11,509 bases of DNA from a virus (IMGVR_UViG_2663763232_000007:1-11509), one strand, 5' to 3'; shown: positions 1,908-10,389, numbered from the stretch's first letter. The notes: generated by a model not told the origin, from the letters alone. Made by a program: numbers and translations.

Positions 1908-4322
1908 TTAATACAGATCCCGCCACTTATCATCTTCCTGCAAACGCTGGTTCCGATAGAAGATACGCAGGCCTGCTCCTGACGGAATACTGCCGCCGCG
2001 AAGGAGTAAATCGACCTCTTTCTCGCTGCCATCAAATCCTCTGGACTTCAGTTCATAGACGAGCTGCTGTCGTTGATGGTCTGTAATTCGCTGTTTGTAG
2101 TCTCTACGCCGTTTCGGTTTCACCAGGCGTAACCTTGCAGCCAGTTCCCGGCGTTCTTTTTTGTTCATACTGTGCAGGTAATCGTGCAACTCCTTGTCAT
2201 CCATACGGGTGATATCCGTTCTGGTATCCCCATCAGCTGATTTGTCTTTCCCTTGTTGGTACAAATTTTCAGCAAGGGGACAGTTATTGCCACGAGTCCA
2301 AGGGGCGCAAGCGCCCTGGTCGGCTGCCGCCTCCTGAACGTCAACGGCTTTACGAACCATTTTCCACTTCACTGCATGAGTGCAGATCTTGCCCTCTGCA
2401 ATGGGTGACCAGATGCCATAAATACGAATGCCGTGATCGCCATAGGCGGTCGGCTCTTCGTTGATTTCATAAGCGGTTCTGATGAGGTGATATTTACGGG
2501 GAACCAGTACGCCGCCCTGCTTCATGATGTAGGTGGCAAAACAACCAGCATCAGCAGCAGCCAGGATGGCATCAAGGCGCGGGTTATCCAGTACCGGCGC
2601 ACCTGCTTTTTTGTCCCCCTGTTGCCTTGCCGCCTGACCAGCCAGCAATCGCAGTTCACGGTAAGCCTGACGCCCCGGAATGCCAAAGAAGCGGAATTGC
2701 TGAACACGATGCAAAGACGCCCAGGCATTCACGTATTCAGCGTTATCACGCAGAGATTTACCCGTTTCCTTGCTGATCTCGCCAGCCAGACCACGCCCGT
2801 CAATGTTCTTACTGATGTATTTCGCTATGTAGCTTGTCGGCGTTCCTTTGCGCGGGTTAATCAGCTCAGACTTAAAGCGCGGCCCCGTGTTATTGCCCAG
2901 CTCCTCGCGGTCTTCACGGATAGCAAACTTACGCAACAATGCAGTAATGGCTCGGCGGTCTTTTTTGCGCATGAAACACAACAGGTGCCAGTGAACTGTG
3001 CCGTCGTGATGCGGCTCAGCCACCCGCACGCCATACCAGCGCAACCCGGCTTTGTGCATCGCCTTACGAAATGCAGCAAACATACCGACCAGATAATCGC
3101 TGCTTTGTCTTACCGTCGCATTTGTCCAGGTCGGGTTGGGCCTGCCGTTATTTAGCGTGGAATGGAAACGTGACGGACAGGTGATGGTGTAGAAAACGGC
3201 GCAGTCACCGCGCATTTCCGCGATAAGCTCCAGACCTTTAACACAGGCCATCATCTCATTGCGGCGATGCGCAGGGTTGCTGCTGCTGGCGTTTACCACA
3301 TCCTCCATGTCCAGCGTGTCGCCGTCTTCGTTCACCAGTTCATGAGAACGGAAAAACTCCAGCGACTTACGGCGCTGCTCACGTTTATGCAACACGGCTT
3401 CATAGCTGACATAGGGAGATGCTTTTTTGCTGACAAGGCAGACAGCACGCAACTGCTCTTCCCGCCATTCGCAACGCATCTTCCATAATTTCCGATACCA
3501 CCAGTCGGCGCACAACATACGCGCCAGCGAACCCGGAATGAGTTCATAGGGCACGGGTTTACGGCGGTTCCTTTTCCGACGGAGTTGCTCAAACGCAGGC
3601 GGGATGACATCCAGACGCAGGGTTTCTGCTGCCACCTTTTCCCATGTCTTGCGGATTTCTTCTGGCTTAACGTCATCGGTGGCATACAAATCGCCACAAG
3701 CTGCATCAAGGCACATGCTCATATGCGCAGCAACAAGGGTGGACAGGCGTTTCACCTGATCCTGACTCATTTCAGGCAGAATCAGCAGGCCGTCCAGCCC
3801 TTCATGGCTTGCCATAAAGCGAAAAGAAGTGGATAGCTGACTGTCGCGTACATGCTCCAGCCGTTCCAGACATGGCTTAATCGTCTCACGCAAATAGCGG
3901 GAATAAGCCTTTGGCCTGCCAAGGCTGCTGAAGTATTCAATACGTTGCATCAGCGGCTTGCTGATATGGGAGGGCTGGGCGCTGACGTCTGCCAGAATGA
4001 CCATGTCCGGGTTAAAACGCTGCTGCTCATGCGCCAACTTTGCCCGGCTAATGAGCTTATCCTGCTCCATTTCGCGCTGGACAGGATCACGGGATTCATT
4101 AAAGAAATAACGCTCCCAAACCTGATCACTCAGTGCCTCGCGGCGCAGTTGTTCCTGCTCGTTATCGGCAGCGTACAGAGTGATCAGGTTTGAAAGCGCA
4201 GAAACCGGCGCAACTTCCGCCGGGTCCAGATAAGGGTTAATGGCCTTTTTCGGGCTGTTCCATGAGAACGATGCGGCAGCTTCGTTAAAGCCGCAGCAGT
4301 TGTTCATATCGGCATGACTCAT
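1908..4322 (-). CDS. A: Rolling-circle replication initiation endonuclease, P2 gpA / 186 A family (804 aa)
   Basis: Contains VHWHLL (HUH-type metal-binding motif) and YIAKYISK (paired catalytic tyrosines three residues apart), as in P2 gpA-family initiators. ATG start overlaps the dam stop as ATGA. Confidence 0.9.
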
Positions 4323-5176
4323 GCACGTACTCCGTACACGGCAGAACTATCCACGCCACGCGAATAATCAAATCCCACCCAGCAGCGCGGCCCAGAAACA
4401 GCAATGATTTCTGTTGCTGATTTACCCTCGCCAGCTGCCACACCGATGCTGCGTTTTGCCTTGATGTAGTGGTGAGTAAAATTGCGATACAGCGAACGGA
4501 TCAGGGATGTGTCACTGTTAGAAACAATGACCGGATGTCCTTCTGATGACCGATGTTCAAGAACAGATGCCAGGTGATACTGGTCATCTTCAGTGAAGCC
4601 GTCAGTGTGATAGCCGGAAAACGTACCGTCATACGGCGGATCGCAATACACCACATCCCCCGCCTTCAACATCGCCAGCGTTTCATCAAAGCTGGCGCAG
4701 ATAAACGTTGCTCGCTGGGCCTTTTCTGCAAATGCGCGAATTTCTTTTTCAGGGAAATACGGATTTTTATAATTACCGTAGGGAATGTTGAAATGCCCGC
4801 TCTTGTTATAGCGACATAAACCACGGTAACCGTGACGATTGAGATACAGGAAATATACCGCTTTCATGAAATCAGTAATTTCAGTTGAGTAATTAAACTC
4901 CTGCCTTATGTTGTAATAAGCCACCTCCCTGTTTGCGATCTCAAATAAAACTCTGGCGCGAGATATAAACGATTCACAATCAGCGGCAACCTTTTTATAG
5001 AGGTTGATTAAATCAGGATTAATATCCGCAACCAGATAGCTGGGATAATCCGTCTCCATCATCACAGCACAGGAACCCGCGAAAGGTTCAACCAGTCGCG
5101 GGCCAGCAGGAAGATGTTTTTTCAGTTCGGACATTATGGCAGTTTTATTTCCCGCCCATTTCAGGATGGTGCTCAT
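4319..5176 (-). CDS. dam: DNA adenine methyltransferase, Dam/D12 class (N6-adenine)
   Basis: From the internal ATG the protein reads [11 protein letters not shown]..., with [10 protein letters not shown] (SAM-binding motif I-like) and VVYCDPPY (motif IV DPPY). The ATG overlaps the upstream stop as ATGA. The track ORF starts 20 codons earlier at a non-ATG codon. Confidence 0.85.
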
Positions 5177-5400
5177 ACAGCACCTCCGTTGTAATGTTTG
5201 CCTTTCAGCTCTGCGATTTCCTGACAGGTAATGCAAAGCTGCACACCCGGAATGGCACGGCGGCGTGCTGGCGGAATTGGCGCTTCACACTCAATGCAAA
5301 GTACGCGTGACACGCCCGGTGATTTGGCACGGGCTGCACGGATATGGCGCTGGCGTTCTTCTTCAACGCGCTGCTGTACGAGATCCATTGCATCAGCCAT
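5173..5400 (-). CDS. TraR/DksA-family C4 zinc-finger protein (75 aa)
   Basis: CIEC-(17 aa)-CITC spacing typical of the DksA/TraR zinc finger; AGGAG SD 8 nt before the ATG; start overlaps the upstream stop (TAATG). Confidence 0.75.
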   Translation of the reverse strand: MADAMDLVQQRVEEERQRHIRAARAKSPGVSRVLCIECEAPIPPARRRAIPGVQLCITCQEIAELKGKHYNGGAV

Positions 5401-5700: not shown

Positions 5701-6042
5701 TTAATTCGGCATGGTTAGCCGTCTGGGAAATAAGCTCACCACTGCACGAAAATGATTCATTGCTTTAATCAGCTCCCGCTTTTCGTCAGTGGTCAGCTCA
5801 TTAATGCTGATGCTATGACGTTCAGCTGGAATTTTTGCCATAAAGAATATGGCAGCCAGTGCCCGTTTATTTTGTTCATTATTGATATCCCGTGGATCAC
5901 GCATATCTTTAATAAACCGCTCAAGCTCTGACTCAATATTCAAACCAAAAACTTTCGCCCTTAACTCCGCAATATGATTAAGTCCATTCAGGCGTTCACC
6001 GGGTCTTAATGGAACAGTCGCCGCAGCGCCTTCAATAGCCAT
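5701..6042 (-). CDS. Hypothetical early-operon protein (113 aa)
   Basis: ATG preceded by GGGGGAA; position corresponds to the fil/dhr region of the 186 early operon, but I cannot match the sequence to either. Confidence 0.55.
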   Translation of the reverse strand: MAIEGAAATVPLRPGERLNGLNHIAELRAKVFGLNIESELERFIKDMRDPRDINNEQNKRALAAIFFMAKIPAERHSISINELTTDEKRELIKAMNHFRAVVSLFPRRLTMPN

Positions 6043-6206
6043 TTGTTCCCCCGTTTTTTCGTAGATAGTTCTGCCAGCAATTCATCTTGTGAACGGCACG
6101 GATGCCAGCGTTTACCATCCTCACCCATGATCCAGCCGTGACCGTAGTGCATTGCCGGACTTTGTTTTACCAGCAGCGATGCAAATGATGGTTCTTTCGT
6201 CAGCAT
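6006..6206 (-). CDS. Hypothetical small protein (66 aa from the ATG), immediately downstream of cII
   Basis: ATG preceded by GAGGTG that overlaps the cII stop; its 3' end overlaps the next ORF by 37 nt in another frame, so one of the two starts may be wrong. Confidence 0.4.
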   Translation of the reverse strand: MLTKEPSFASLLVKQSPAMHYGHGWIMGEDGKRWHPCRSQDELLAELSTKKRGNKWLLKALRRLFH

Positions 6207-6213
6207 AAGCACC

Positions 6214-6723
6214 TCACAGCAAACCGAATGAAGCACCGAGGCCAGTTACAGTATCAACTGCACTTGCCATCACAGGATTAACCTGTAAACGGGCCTGCAA
6301 TGAAACAGCAGCTAACGCCATCAGTCGTGTAACAGAGTTAATGCTGCTGATAGCATCACGACGACCTGCACTGGTTTTTACATCGCCAGATACCGCACCT
6401 GCAGCAACACGCCCGATCTCTGCGGTTGCACTCATGACGTAATGTGGCAGTTTCTCTTTTGCCACCTCATTAATCGGTACACATGGCAGGCAGTGAATCT
6501 GTGCCAGAAAACCGTCTACCAGCGTTGAATCTTCCGTCAGATCGGTAAGTAGCCAGATATCTGGCGCATTGAGCTGATGCGGTTGATCTGGGTTGAGTTT
6601 GTTTCGCAGAGTCTGGACATTCATTCCTGCACGTTCTGCCAGCTTCGCCATATTGTGGCGTAGTGCAAAAGCTCTACAGGCTTCATCAAAATGCGGATGT
6701 TTGGAAATCTTGTAATCAAACAT
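6214..6723 (-). CDS. cII: CII-type transcriptional activator of lysogeny (186 CII family, 169 aa)
   Basis: Same length as 186 CII as I recall it, same position after apl, and an N-terminal HTH-like segment ([19 protein letters not shown]). ATG preceded by AAGGGGG. Confidence 0.8.
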
Positions 6724-6755
6724 GCTGCCCCCTTAGAAAGTTCTCATAATTGAAC

Positions 6756-7004
6756 TTAGCCACCAACGATGACATTAAAATTGAAATTGGATTGGCCCAT
6801 GTTTTTCCTGACTTGTTCCTTTTTGTACTCAAGGTAACGTATACATACTCTGTCTTTCGGTTTTTCCTTTTTTTCCAAGAATTTAGCGAGCTTACCATTA
6901 TGAATCATTTGATATACCGAACCGCGAGAGCGGCCTTCCCATTCCGCGAACTCTGCAGGTGTCGCCATCACTTTTGGTACACGAATTGAAATGTCGTTGC
7001 TCAT
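6756..7004 (-). CDS. apl: Apl/Cox-family excisionase and lytic-promoter repressor (82 aa)
   Basis: First gene of the - strand early operon, divergent from cI; small basic protein with an HTH-like segment (ATPAEFAEWEGRSRGSVYQMIHNGKL); ATG start. Confidence 0.7.
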   Translation of the reverse strand: MSNDISIRVPKVMATPAEFAEWEGRSRGSVYQMIHNGKLAKFLEKKEKPKDRVCIRYLEYKKEQVRKNMGQSNFNFNVIVGG

Positions 7005-7123
7005 AGTGCAGTATCTCTCGATTAAGGTTTTGTTTATGTCGTTTTATCTTGTTTTATTAGATTCAATATTTGATACATCGAGATACTACGATCCAATATT
7101 TGATACGTCAATAGGATTAAGAA
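7005..7123. promoter_or_regulatory. Lysis/lysogeny switch region between apl and cI, carrying the early lytic and repressor promoters and operator repeats
   Basis: 119-bp AT-rich spacer between divergent apl and cI. Candidate lytic promoter on the - strand: -35 TTGACG (complement of 7106..7111), 17-nt spacer, -10 TAGTAT (complement of 7083..7088). I could not pin the + strand repressor promoter. Confidence 0.5.
7064..7107. repeat. Two direct copies of CAATATTTGATAC spaced 30 bp apart; candidate Apl or CI operator sites
   Basis: Copies at 7064..7076 and 7094..7106 read directly; the 30-bp spacing is about three helical turns; the second copy abuts the candidate -35. Confidence 0.45.
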
Positions 7124-7756
7124 ATGATACAGGTAAAAGCTGGCGAGAATACAGGGGGAAGAGAGGCTATCCATAGACTAATGGCAGCCTATGATTTCAA
7201 GTCCAGACAGCAACTTTGCGATCACTTAGGCGCATCAAAAAGCACTATGGCAAACAGATACTTAAGAGATAGCTTTCCCGCAGAGTGGGTGATTCAGTGC
7301 GCCTTGGAAACAGGAGTTTCTTTACTGTGGCTAACCACCGGACAAGGCGAGCCAGGTTCAAAAATTGACCCTAAAAAAAATATCAATTCTGTGAACTCCA
7401 GCAGGGTTAAACCTCTTTCTGAGCTTGTATCTCCTGAAATTGACAAGGCAACTCTCAACGGTGGTTTATTGGTCGATGCTGGAAAAGCAATCATTGATAG
7501 CAGCATACTCCCCTCAGACTCAAGCAACCTGCTGCTGGTGAGTACTTCTGGTGATTCTTATTTAATAGATCGCAACCAAACACCACCAGTAAATGGTACG
7601 TGGTTAGTGGACATCGACGGGATAAAAAGCATTGTAAAATTGACACGACTCCCGGGAAACAGATTAGTAGTGCATCAGGATGATTCATCGTTTGAGTGCG
7701 AACTGGATGACATTGAGGTAATAGGTCGCGCACTGAAAATTATTAAGAGCCTTTGA
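7124..7756 (+). CDS. cI: CI-type immunity repressor (210 aa from ATG 7124; 191 aa if the ATG at 7181 is used)
   Basis: N-terminal HTH ending in LLWLTTGQGEP, plus a C-terminal domain; divergent from apl; stop is 1 nt before the int ATG (TGAtATG). AGGA lies 7 nt before ATG 7124. 186 CI is about 192 aa by my recollection, so the start is uncertain. Confidence 0.75.
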   Translation: MIQVKAGENTGGREAIHRLMAAYDFKSRQQLCDHLGASKSTMANRYLRDSFPAEWVIQCALETGVSLLWLTTGQGEPGSKIDPKKNINSVNSSRVKPLSELVSPEIDKATLNGGLLVDAGKAIIDSSILPSDSSNLLLVSTSGDSYLIDRNQTPPVNGTWLVDIDGIKSIVKLTRLPGNRLVVHQDDSSFECELDDIEVIGRALKIIKSL

Positions 7757-7757
7757 T

Positions 7758-8783
7758 ATGACCATCAGAAAACAGCCGAACGGAAAGTGGTTATGTGAAT
7801 GCTACCCAAACGGAAGAGATGGCAAACGCGTACGCAAACAATTTGCGACGAAAGGCGAAGCCATTGCGTTTGAGAATTTCACCATGGATGAGGTAAACAA
7901 GAAACCTTGGCTGGGAGAAAAGGAAGATCGGCGACAACTGTCAGAAGTGATTGAGCAATGGTATTCCCTGTACGGTCAGACACTCGCTGACCCTAAGCGA
8001 TTAATGGCTAAGTTAAAAATCATTTGTAATGGACTTGGCGATCCCATCGCTTCTGAATTGACAGCAGGTGATTTCACAAAGTACCGGGAAGCCAGATTAA
8101 AAGGTGAGGTCAAAAACGAAGATGGCGTGCTCATGTCACCGGTTAAGCCCAGAACGGTGAACCTTGAACAGCGTAACCTATCCTCAGTTTTTGGCACACT
8201 GAAAAAGCTGGGGCATTGGTCTGCACCCAACCCCCTCGCCGGTCTGCCAACTTTCAAAATTGCAGAAGGTGAACTGGCGTTCCTTGCTGCTGATGAAATC
8301 AAACGCCTGCTTGACGCATGTGCTGAATCTCAAAGTCCCAGTCTGCTAATGATTGCCAAGATTTGCCTGGCTACCGGGGCAAGATGGAGCGAAGCCGAAA
8401 ACCTGCAAGGTAACCAGATATCAAAGTATCGAATTACCTATACCAAAACAAAAGGAAAGAAAAACCGAACTGTTCCTATTTCTCAGGAACTGTATGAAGA
8501 ATTACCCAAAAACAGAGGAAAGTTATTCACACCATGCCGAAAGGCTTTTGAGCGTGCGGTAAAACGAGCTGGAATTGAACTACCTGAAGGTCAATGTACC
8601 CACGTTCTGCGCCACACTTTCGCCAGTCACTTTATGATGAACGGCGGAAACATTTTGGTATTGAGGGATATTTTAGGACACGCTGATATTAAAATGACCA
8701 TGATTTATGCCCATTTTGCACCGGATCATCTGGAAGATGCCGTTACCAAAAATCCACTTCATAACCTCAACTGGCATCGCTAA
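7758..8783 (+). CDS. int: Tyrosine integrase, P2/186 family (341 aa)
   Basis: C-terminal catalytic region HVLRHTFASHF...LGHADIKMTMIYAHF (H-x-x-R and catalytic Tyr); size and position after cI match P2/186 Int; reads into the att site. Confidence 0.9.
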   Translation: MTIRKQPNGKWLCECYPNGRDGKRVRKQFATKGEAIAFENFTMDEVNKKPWLGEKEDRRQLSEVIEQWYSLYGQTLADPKRLMAKLKIICNGLGDPIASELTAGDFTKYREARLKGEVKNEDGVLMSPVKPRTVNLEQRNLSSVFGTLKKLGHWSAPNPLAGLPTFKIAEGELAFLAADEIKRLLDACAESQSPSLLMIAKICLATGARWSEAENLQGNQISKYRITYTKTKGKKNRTVPISQELYEELPKNRGKLFTPCRKAFERAVKRAGIELPEGQCTHVLRHTFASHFMMNGGNILVLRDILGHADIKMTMIYAHFAPDHLEDAVTKNPLHNLNWHR

Positions 8784-8788
8784 TAAAT

Positions 8789-8836
8789 GGCGGCACTTTG
8801 GCGGCAGAGCACTAAAAACAAGTAAAACAAGCAAAC
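8789..8836. repeat. Short direct repeats in the att arm (GGCGGCA x2; AAAACAAG x2), possible Int arm-type or host-factor sites
   Basis: GGCGGCA at 8789..8795 and 8800..8806; AAAACAAG at 8815..8822 and 8824..8831; AT-rich context between the int stop and the att core. Confidence 0.3.
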
Positions 8837-8900
8837 ACAGATTAACACTAACATCATGATTTAAAATGAAAAAATATGATTTCGTTAGTGTAAAAATGGT

Positions 8901-8944
8901 ATGTAGGAATTTCGGACGCGGGTTCAACTCCCGCCAGCCCACCA
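8901..8944 (+). ncRNA. ssrA: 3' terminal 44 nt of ssrA (tmRNA), T-arm and acceptor 3' strand ending in CCA; att core shared by the prophage and the downstream island. Not a complete tmRNA gene
   Basis: atgtaggaatttcggacgcgggttcaactcccgccagcccacca matches the 3' end of E. coli ssrA as I recall it (one position differs). Upstream sequence is the int 3' end and AT-rich arm, not the tmRNA body. Confidence 0.8.
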
Positions 8945-8991: not shown

Positions 8992-9023
8992 GCCCGCACG
9001 GCGCAAGCCCTGCGGGCTTTTTT
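8992..9023 (+). terminator. Rho-independent terminator (ssrA terminator)
   Basis: gcccgca-cggcgcaagccc-tgcgggc followed by TTTTTT, 48 nt after the CCA end. Confidence 0.7.
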
Positions 9024-9078
9024 GTGCCCTCACTTTGTCCCGCGAAGTCCGAAGAGAACTAATTAAATCCGAACCTTT

Positions 9079-9128
9079 TAGGCCCATTGATAGGCCCAAC
9101 GAAAAGCTCTATTGTTTTCGTTGGGCCT
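9079..9128 (+). promoter_or_regulatory. Direct repeat TAGGCCCA x2 overlapping a perfect 14-bp stem / 9-nt loop hairpin in the intA upstream region
   Basis: TAGGCCCA at 9079..9086 and 9091..9098; stem aggcccaacgaaaa (9092..9105) pairs with ttttcgttgggcct (9115..9128); ends 20 nt before the intA ATG; no T tract follows. Confidence 0.35.
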
Positions 9129-9147
9129 AAACGCATGGAGACTCCCC

Positions 9148-10389
9148 ATGGCAAGAAAAACCAAGCCGTTAACCGATACGGAAATCAAAGCCGCCAAACC
9201 TAAAGATGCCGATTACCAGCTATATGATGGTGACGGGCTTACTCTGTTAATCAAGTCCAGTGGTAGTAAGCTCTGGCAATTCCGTTACTATCGACCTCTG
9301 ACAAAACAGCGAACCAAGCAAAGCTTCGGAGCCTACCCTGCTGTCTCCCTTTCTGATGCGCGTAAACTCAGAGCTGAATCTCGAGTTTTATTGGCGAAAG
9401 ACATTGATCCTCAGGAACATCAGAAAGAGCAGGTTAGAAATTCTCAAGAGGCTAAAACCAACACTTTCCTGTTAGTTGCCGAGCGTTGGTGGAATGTGAA
9501 GAAAGCCAGCGTAACAGAGGACTATGCCGATGATATCTGGCGCTCGCTTGAGAGAGATGTTTTCCCAGCAATCGGTGATATCAGTGTCACCGAGATTAAG
9601 GCTCATACTCTGGTTAAAGCAGTGCAGCCGGTTCAGGCCAGAGGTGCATTAGAGACTGTTCGCCGCCTTTGTCAGCGTATTAACGAAGTCATGATTTATG
9701 CTCAGAACACAGGCCTAATTGATGCTGTTCCCAGCGTTAACATCGGGAAAGCATTCGAGAAACCGCAGAAGAAAAACATGCCTAGTATCCGCCCGGATCA
9801 ACTTCCACAATTAATGCAGACTATGCGCACGGCAAGTATCAGCCTGTCCACACGATGCCTGTTCATGTGGCAACTTCTAACCATCACCCGCCCTGCCGAA
9901 GCTGCTGAGGCTCGATGGGATGAGATCGATTTCAATGCTAGCGAATGGAAAATTCCTGCAGCTCGAATGAAGATGAACCGGGACCATACGGTTCCACTAT
10001 CTGATGGGGCTCTTGCTATTCTGGAAATGATGAAGCCTCTCAGTGGTGGCCGAGAATTTATCTTTCCTAGCCGTATCAAGCCCAACCAACCAATGAATAG
10101 CCAAACAGTGAATGCAGCACTCAAGCGTGCTGGCTTAGGAGGTGTACTTGTTTCACACGGCTTGCGTTCTATCGCCAGTACGGCACTCAATGAGGAAGGA
10201 TTTCCACCTGATGTCATTGAAGCAGCGCTTGCTCATGTAGACAAAAATGAGGTGCGTCGCGCTTATAACCGCAGTGATTATCTTGAGCAACGTCGTCCGA
10301 TGATGCAATGGTGGGCTGATTTTGTAAAAGCAGCAGATAGCGGCAGTATCGTTAATAGTGGGGTTAGGGGAATACGGCTTGTGGGATGA
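9148..10389 (+). CDS. intA: Tyrosine integrase of the CP4-57 (IntA/SlpA, ssrA-targeting) type, 413 aa
   Basis: From ATG 9148 (GGAGA SD) the protein begins MARKTKPLTDTEIKAAKPKDADYQLYDGDGLTLLIK, matching CP4-57 IntA as I recall it; C-terminal HGLRS...RRAYNRSDY catalytic region. The track ORF starts 12 codons earlier at TTG. Confidence 0.85.
   Translation: MARKTKPLTDTEIKAAKPKDADYQLYDGDGLTLLIKSSGSKLWQFRYYRPLTKQRTKQSFGAYPAVSLSDARKLRAESRVLLAKDIDPQEHQKEQVRNSQEAKTNTFLLVAERWWNVKKASVTEDYADDIWRSLERDVFPAIGDISVTEIKAHTLVKAVQPVQARGALETVRRLCQRINEVMIYAQNTGLIDAVPSVNIGKAFEKPQKKNMPSIRPDQLPQLMQTMRTASISLSTRCLFMWQLLTITRPAEAAEARWDEIDFNASEWKIPAARMKMNRDHTVPLSDGALAILEMMKPLSGGREFIFPSRIKPNQPMNSQTVNAALKRAGLGGVLVSHGLRSIASTALNEEGFPPDVIEAALAHVDKNEVRRAYNRSDYLEQRRPMMQWWADFVKAADSGSIVNSGVRGIRLVG

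Follow-up and report, generated by a model that had tools for sequence, protein, structure and literature searches.

The window (the whole 11,509-nucleotide stretch of viral DNA analysed here, IMGVR_UViG_2663763232_000007) contains a divergent pair of genes, encoding a CI-type repressor and an Apl/Cox-like protein, on the two sides of a short intergenic region. The genes and attachment features around this region are located as follows.

1908-4322, - strand: P2 A-type replication gene
4319-5236, - strand: methylase gene (Dam-like, prophage-encoded)
6214-6723, - strand: cII-like gene
6756-7004, - strand: apl/cox-like gene, 82 aa, first in the lytic operon
7124-7756, + strand: cI repressor gene, 210 aa, of the 186 CI family
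7758-8783, + strand: int, downstream of cI
8788-8795 and 8799-8806: Int arm-type repeats TGGCGGCA, downstream of int
about 8905-8944: 3' end of ssrA (att core), beyond the Int arm-type repeats
about 8992-9024: ssrA terminator hairpin
9112-10389: P4/CP4-57-type integrase gene, beyond the ssrA terminator hairpin

The CI protein consists of the Pfam domains Phage_CI_repr and Phage_CI_C, and Phage_CP76 and integrase domains were also matched in the window. Among solved structures, 186 CI (2FJR) was the best relative of the window CI (E = 2e-25). The apl product aligned with 186 Apl over its full length at 29% identity (E = 3e-10), and its PHROG matches were 'excisionase' and 'Cox-like excisionase and repressor'. 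With cI divergent from the apl/cox-like gene, cII beyond apl and int beyond cI, the gene arrangement is that of a 186-type switch. The first-pass annotation had claimed such a switch, and the claim is borne out by all four genes and by the two CI domains. The window harbours the lysis/lysogeny switch of a prophage of the 186 family (SopEPhi/SEN8-like) that is integrated at ssrA.

The integration site reported for SopEPhi and Fels-2 is ssrA as well (PMC3448106). The partial tmRNA represented by the ssrA end was not called by ARAGORN or Rfam, and the Rfam and tRNA scans of the window were empty. As a P4/CP4-57-type integrase gene is present beyond the ssrA end, two mobile elements are therefore arranged in tandem at ssrA. 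The phages closest to the switch were Klebsiella prophages (96.6% identity). The closest sequenced phages belong to the SopEPhi/Fels-2/SEN8 group (Salmonella P2-like, Felsduovirus), with 80-83% nucleotide identity over the switch, a range obtained for SEN8, MLG42 and SopEPhi. This group has in common with the window the integration at ssrA and a CI N-terminal domain that is 97-100% identical. Switch-related sequence is not confined to a few hosts: among complete E. coli genomes 173 of 5,426 contained it, and it was found in Klebsiella, Salmonella, Citrobacter, Enterobacter and Yersinia as well. One of the E. coli relatives (L004, p13P477T-2, 1922-2549) is a circular 37-kb plasmid record resembling an episomal or excised copy of the prophage, and its cI, int and fil are annotated as frameshifted.

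Promoters were mapped by mirroring the annotated coordinates of the 186 record onto the window. In that record cI starts at 3012 and apl at 3142. The pR elements are placed at 3027-3032 (-35) and 3050-3055 (-10), and those of pL at 3132-3137 (-10) and, within apl, at 3155-3160 (-35). The annotated binding sites comprise three for CI within 3012-3068 and seven for Apl within 3057-3124. The corresponding promoter candidates of the window, together with the two repeated units found beside one of them, are listed below.

7111..7106 (-35, TTGACG), 17 nt, 7088..7083 (-10, TAGTAT), - strand: lytic promoter candidate (pR equivalent), from the consensus scan
6986-6991 (TTGAAA), 17 nt, 7009-7014 (CAGTAT), + strand: lysogenic promoter candidate (pL equivalent), placed by the 186 offsets
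7060-7079: unit O1, GATTCAATATTTGATACATC, with core TCAAtatTTGA at 7063-7073, proposed CI operator
7090-7109: unit O2, GATCCAATATTTGATACGTC, with core CCAAtatTTGA at 7093-7103, proposed CI operator

The pR candidate would start at about 7076 and transcribe apl-cII-...-A. A lytic promoter with these elements, pointing toward apl, had been proposed earlier and is credible: several immunity groups have the same -35 without exception and either TAGTAT or TAATAT as the -10, and relative to the cI start its -35 is at most 2 bp away from the position of 186 pR.

The 11.5-kb window contains two exact copies of the 13-mer CAATATTTGATAC, at 7064-7076 and 7094-7106, and no others. Of the 20 positions of units O1 and O2, 18 are identical, and the two units start 30 bp apart. 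The sequence reported to occur twice, 30 bp apart, is thus indeed present. When the window was shuffled with dinucleotides preserved, 5 of 200 shuffles had some exact direct repeat at least 13 nt long within 100 bp, and the exact repeat by itself is therefore only moderately unusual. The reality of the repeats as a feature rests on conservation, which is the stronger evidence. For this purpose 90 loci with the same CI type were compared, amounting to 38 distinct intergenic sequences. The positions of O1 and O2 were constant in all 90 loci, free of indels, also in the SopEPhi/Fels-2/SEN8 group. The identity between the two units ranged from 10 to 19 of 20 positions over this set, and exact 13-mer identity was confined to a subset of relatives, the window included; in SopEPhi, unlike the window, O1 has drifted to 12/20 identity with O2. 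Among the 38 distinct sequences, the O1 arms TCAA (7063-7066) and TTGA (7070-7073) were almost invariant, and the variable parts of O1 were two inner positions beside the centre and the TAC tail. Within the 11-bp core of O2, the central base 7098 alone varied. At any one position of the TCAA/TTGA arms, no more than 1 of the 38 sequences differed. Hence, the conserved element is the 11-bp dyad [T/C]CAA-N3-TTGA and not the 13-mer itself. The pattern TCAANNNTTGA was observed three times in the window against 0.36 expected, and all matches to at least 7 of its 8 positions within 6000-8900 fell inside 7063-7695. The O1 core would cover about +4 to +14 of the predicted pR transcript, and O2 is situated in the pR spacer with its right end overlapping or abutting the -35.

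A further copy of the dyad was found inside cI.

7358-7368: third dyad copy, TCAAAAATTGA, in cI codons 79-82 (linker), proposed distal operator, FL-like

It is separated from O1 by 295 bp and from O2 by 265 bp. Its CAAnnnTTGA pattern was kept in 26 of 28 distinct relatives. The residues encoded there vary among the 28 (S/P/T/A, N/K/I, I/V and D/E/K), and codon 79 always has A at its third position, a four-fold degenerate site. The cI-internal dyad is retained at the DNA level despite this protein variation, and by analogy it may parallel FL of 186, a CI site within cI about 300 bp from pR (PMC3675496).

Several other candidates were considered. The dyad-like matches at 7487-7497 and 7685-7695 in cI are probably due to chance; synonymous changes in relatives break both. 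A 13-mer in apl (6907-6920, 12/14 match to part of O1) is conserved coding sequence and was treated as chance. A possible third unit at pR, TGATAC at 7125-7130 in cI codons 1-3, is 24 bp from the O2 copy and matches at 10 of 17 positions. The ribosome-binding site and the opening codons of cI constrain this stretch, which may be either a degenerate third operator or a chance match.

Repeats of this kind could also arise in a region that no dedicated protein binds, O2 being a constrained spacer and -35 flank of pR, and O1 a local duplication or a product of gene conversion. The overlap of O2 with promoter elements, which confounds its conservation, the restriction of exact 13-mer identity to a subset of relatives and the rate at which shuffling yields a close 13-nt repeat would all suit such an origin. 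Promoter spacers, however, are not normally constrained in sequence, yet O2 varies at its dyad centre only, and the O1 arms are nearly invariant despite the location of O1 downstream of the pR start. Furthermore, the third copy in cI is maintained against amino-acid change, and unrelated CI classes possess their own repeated units at the same positions. We consider this explanation unlikely.

Judged by position and covariation, the CI immunity repressor is the most likely ligand of O1 and O2, which would be its operators over pR. Their placement on pR is the layout of a repressor occluding a lytic promoter. The strong central CI operator of 186, ATCTCCCAATTGAGAGAT, is found where O2 is located, within the pR spacer, and a class-specific unit is present there in every CI group. 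The 11-bp dyad core suits a helix-turn-helix dimer; the half-sites are just 7 bp apart from centre to centre, which is short for a typical dimer of this type. In all 15 relatives compared, the operator sequence tracked CI and not Apl. The E. coli plasmid relative L004 encodes an Apl that is 99% identical and a CI N-terminal domain that is 73% identical, and 25 of 50 O1-O2 positions are in common with the window. In a Raoultella relative (L091), the Apl is 68% and the CI domain 99% identical, and 49 of 50 positions are in common. Specificity could not be deduced from the recognition helix of CI: groups A (the present phage, SEN8 and SopEPhi), B and C (Fels-2-like phages and Kp4865-2) all have the predicted helix SKSTMANRYLRD, yet O2 of groups B and C differs from that of group A. 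Likewise, the classes within group F have the same recognition helix and different units. A literature search returned no operator mapping, binding, footprint or transcript data for this phage group.

The wider CI family was compared by using 47 loci, one per species. Several CI classes outside the 186 branch carry two to three class-specific units at the same positions with a spacing of 29-30 bp. In Brenneria populi (L109, 2414-2483), GCTTTTGGAATC is present in three perfect copies at -72, -42 and -14 from the cI ATG, and a fourth copy of this 12-mer with one mismatch is located at +275 within cI (2761-2772). In Rahnella inusitata (L108, 2416-2489), three copies of TCACnnnnTGAAATC are found at -76, -46 and -17. 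The unit of the Hafnia class (L104), TTCAC-N5-GTGA, is of the same sequence type as the experimentally defined CI sites FL, FR and pB of 186, and the 186-like class has class-specific palindromes in the pR spacer. Class-specific repeated units around the -35 and -10 of an early lytic promoter resemble immunity operators. As a family-wide operator descriptor, TTCA-N5-TGAA was rejected. Its 7/8 matches have a background of about 0.2 per 190 bp, and they are therefore meaningful only at consistent positions.

An operator phasing of about 30 bp appears general outside the 186 branch. In the 186 model, a 14-mer CI wheel is wrapped by DNA with a two-turn operator phasing (PMC3675496). Because the strong units described here are 29-30 bp apart as against the two-turn (about 21 bp) phasing of that model, non-186 CI repressors may assemble on DNA with a geometry or stoichiometry different from that of the 186 wheel, a proposal that we put forward tentatively and with some doubt. 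The branches in question are the SopEPhi/SEN8-like group and at least two other classes, with two or three strong units and a distal copy in cI; these repressors nonetheless possess the CI C-terminal oligomerisation domain.

Candidate sites for Apl were found next to the 30-bp repeats and again in the att arm.

7032-7037 (GTTTAT), 7041-7047 (GTTTTAT) and 7051-7057 (GTTTTAT), phased out to 7058, + strand: proposed Apl operators
8821..8813 (TTGTTTTTA), 8830..8822 (TTGTTTTAC) and 8839..8831 (TGTGTTTGC), - strand: att-arm array, proposed Apl excision sites

The starts of the GTTT(T)AT array at 7032-7058 are 9 and 10 bp apart, between pL and pR, and this is the sole cluster of three matches to the motif in the window. 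The att-arm array has a 9-bp phasing and is placed between the Int arm-type sites and the ssrA-derived core. The count of GTTTTAY motifs alone is just modestly above chance. Same-strand pairs spaced by 9-11 bp occur in the switch and the att arm only. There are three of them where 0.21 would be expected, a count attained in 2 of 1000 shuffles. The switch array is retained in relatives, including those of other immunity groups, and the att-arm arrangement is conserved in SEN8 and in locus L097. The order of Int arm sites, Apl-type sites and core is also the annotated order of 186 attP. In 186, Apl operators are 6-bp direct repeats with a spacing of 10-11 bp, of which at least three adjacent copies are required; they are situated between pR and pL, and the same motif is found again at attP (PMC7498355). 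The GTTT(T)AT array with its att-arm copy would fit this description, and Apl most likely binds these two arrays. The 13-mer repeats do not fit it, being two units of 13-20 nt placed 30 bp apart, and no copy of the 13-mer was found in the att arm with up to 3 mismatches allowed.

The first-pass annotation had read the 30-bp-spaced direct repeats themselves as Apl (Cox-type) sites between the promoters, on the ground that they are direct rather than inverted. O1 is in fact inside the stretch that maps to the Apl footprint of 186 (186 3057-3124, about 7012-7079 here). Apl reportedly spreads from specific sites into adjoining DNA (PMC7498355), and it may well cover O1 secondarily. O2, in the pR spacer and -35, is however outside the 186 Apl zone, and the long units at 30 bp are at odds with at least three 6-bp operators at 10-11 bp. 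Their absence from the att arm and the better Apl-type array adjoining them also count against Apl, as do a phage with a 99% identical Apl that lacks the repeats and phages with 68-74% identical Apl that keep them. The argument from direct repeats fails because P2-type C repressors also use direct-repeat operators. With dyad cores, no att-arm copy and a sequence that follows the CI type, Apl binding at the 30-bp repeats is decidedly improbable. The idea of Apl on direct repeats in this region probably holds for the adjacent GTTT(T)AT array and not for the 30-bp repeats, and assigning the latter to Apl would have directed footprinting to the wrong protein.

In P2, P2 Hy dis and WPhi, the operators of the C repressors are formed by a pair of direct repeats on the two sides of early promoter (Pe) elements (PMC1904268, PMC1904263). 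The window resembles them in having two direct-repeat units that flank early lytic promoter elements, convergent promoters, and an immunity-specific sequence and spacing (PMC1904268, PMC1904263). Unlike the 99-aa P2 C, the window repressor has 210 aa and two domains and is unrelated to it in sequence (PMC3448106), and the window units contain an internal dyad. As a 210-aa CI of the 186 family, it falls outside the P2 C family, whose repressors have about 99 aa.

The orientation of the two promoters, convergent or divergent, had been left open earlier. The pL candidate has its -35 within apl codons 5-6, its -10 begins 4 nt past the apl ATG, and its start is predicted at about 7021. The annotated 186 pL (TTGCGA/CATGAT) has identical offsets from the apl ATG and likewise a spacer of 17 nt. 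The pL candidate is a weak consensus match (-10 3/6), as expected for pL. Both the pL and the pR candidates are kept in position across all CI groups sampled. With a pL equivalent at the exact 186 offsets and a conserved pR position, the geometry is therefore convergent as far as the sequence indicates, with predicted starts about 55 bp apart. The promoters would face each other with the lysogenic -35 inside apl, which is the 186-type arrangement. The divergent option did not hold up. The consensus scan lists a + strand site (TTGATA 7100-7105, 17 nt, AATGAT 7123-7128; 9/12 matches) that could act as a back-to-back, lambda-PRM-like promoter of cI. Its start, however, would be about 11 nt inside the cI frame, and the next in-frame Met (codon 20) would cost the first helix of the DNA-binding domain. 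The scan found 2 sites as against 2.0 expected in shuffled sequence, and the pL equivalent with exact 186 geometry is conserved in all groups. A divergent cI promoter is very improbable.

It should also be mentioned that the 8-mer AGTATCTC occurs at 7010-7017 and 7080-7087, inverted and 62 bp apart, and comprises the -10 and the next bases of both promoters. It is probably without a separate function because it is not conserved in groups B and C.

Host nucleoid proteins such as IHF, whose consensus is WATCAANNNNTTR, are scarcely credible ligands of the two units: the - strand TATCAAATATTGA is one mismatch from this consensus and near-consensus in both copies, and IHF acts at 186 attP according to the annotation of the 186 record, but in relatives the bases matched to WAT (the TAC tail of O1) are variable (GAACA, GGACA, GAACT), two IHF sites 30 bp apart would overlap sterically, and the 186 switch has no annotated IHF site.

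With O1 and O2 read as CI operators, the switch of the window is similar to that of 186 in many respects. The gene order (int-cI / apl-cII-...-A) and the CI and Apl/Cox-like families are the same, and the intergenic lengths are close (119 bp in the window vs 129 bp in 186). pL is found at identical offsets from the apl ATG, and pR at no more than 2 bp difference relative to the cI start. Both switches have a repressor-type element in the pR spacer, and the FL-like dyad inside cI may be a further point of resemblance. Both have an array of short repeats, phased at about 10 bp, in the interval that separates the promoters and a second one in the int-proximal att arm beside two Int arm-type sites. 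CII half-sites and pE (a candidate in the window) are found at the cII start. The differences are mainly in sequence and spacing. The operator is [T/C]CAAnnnTTGA in the window vs ATCTCnCAATTGnGAGAT and ATTCAC-N5-GTGAAT in 186, and the window has two clear, near-identical units 30 bp apart, whereas 186 has three sites at pR with a spacing of two helical turns (PMC3675496). The motif of the Apl-type sites is GTTTTAY with three clear copies in the window, in contrast to TTGCCA-like with seven in 186. Moreover, the start sites are about 55 bp apart in the window as predicted here vs 62 in 186, CI has a longer linker (210 aa vs 192 aa), and the attachment site is ssrA instead of a tRNA-Ile gene.

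Overall, we consider it probable that O1 and O2 serve as CI operators and that the switch works like that of 186, with Apl acting on the adjacent array. In such a mechanism, CI oligomers bound to O1 and O2 would block RNA polymerase at pR and keep the apl-cII-replication genes silent. Repression of pR would also relieve the transcriptional interference on the weak convergent pL, as in 186, and pL would then transcribe cI-int and sustain both in lysogeny. Looping may bring the cI-internal dyad, at a distance of about 270-295 bp, to this CI oligomer as well, like FL of 186. Apl made from pR would bind its array, bend the DNA and repress pL (and pR, by spreading), and at the att arm it would direct excision, so that the switch regulator and the excisionase would be one protein. 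CII would activate pE, for which a candidate module is present.

6697-6703 (ATGTTTG) and 6717-6723 (CAAACAT, overlapping the cII start), with -10 CATAAT at 6745-6750: pE-like module with CII half-sites

The 186 CII half-sites ATGTTTG...CAAACAT are conserved in the window at 6697-6723. No convincing FR-type copy of the O1/O2 dyad was found. At the position of FR, which in 186 is located at the apl/cII junction, there is a different dyad, AGTTC-N8-GAACT (6739-6756), that is conserved across immunity groups A-D with variable neighbouring bases. It is not attributable to CI as an FR site; it likely contains the -10 of pE and is common to all immunity groups. A CI site at pB was considered as well. 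In SEN8 (L135, 2470-2500; homologous in L136-L140), the promoter of the late activator (ogr/B homologue) has a perfect palindrome, TCAATATTGA, over the -35, where 186 has a CI site at pB. Its half-sites are one base closer than those of O1 and O2. The palindrome is non-discriminating, being equally present in Fels-2 and in a group C phage, and was rejected as evidence for a CI site.

The window carries a newly analysed relative of the well-known 186 switch with otherwise expected features. The 30-bp operator spacing is the single unusual point and may reflect a different CI-DNA architecture; if true, this phasing is a natural comparison for the 186 CI wheel model. The prophage type is common, and its relatives include the toxin-converting SopEPhi. 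Coordinates are offered here for candidate CI operators, candidate Apl operators and both promoters.

A Dam site was also noted at the lytic promoter. GATC is located at 7090-7093, at the -10-proximal end of the pR spacer, and GATC is present at the pR spacer in every non-186 CI group examined (GATCCA, GATCAC, GATCGC) and absent from the 186-like group. A Dam-like methylase is encoded by the prophage, and pR, or the binding of the repressor, could conceivably be under methylation-sensitive control.
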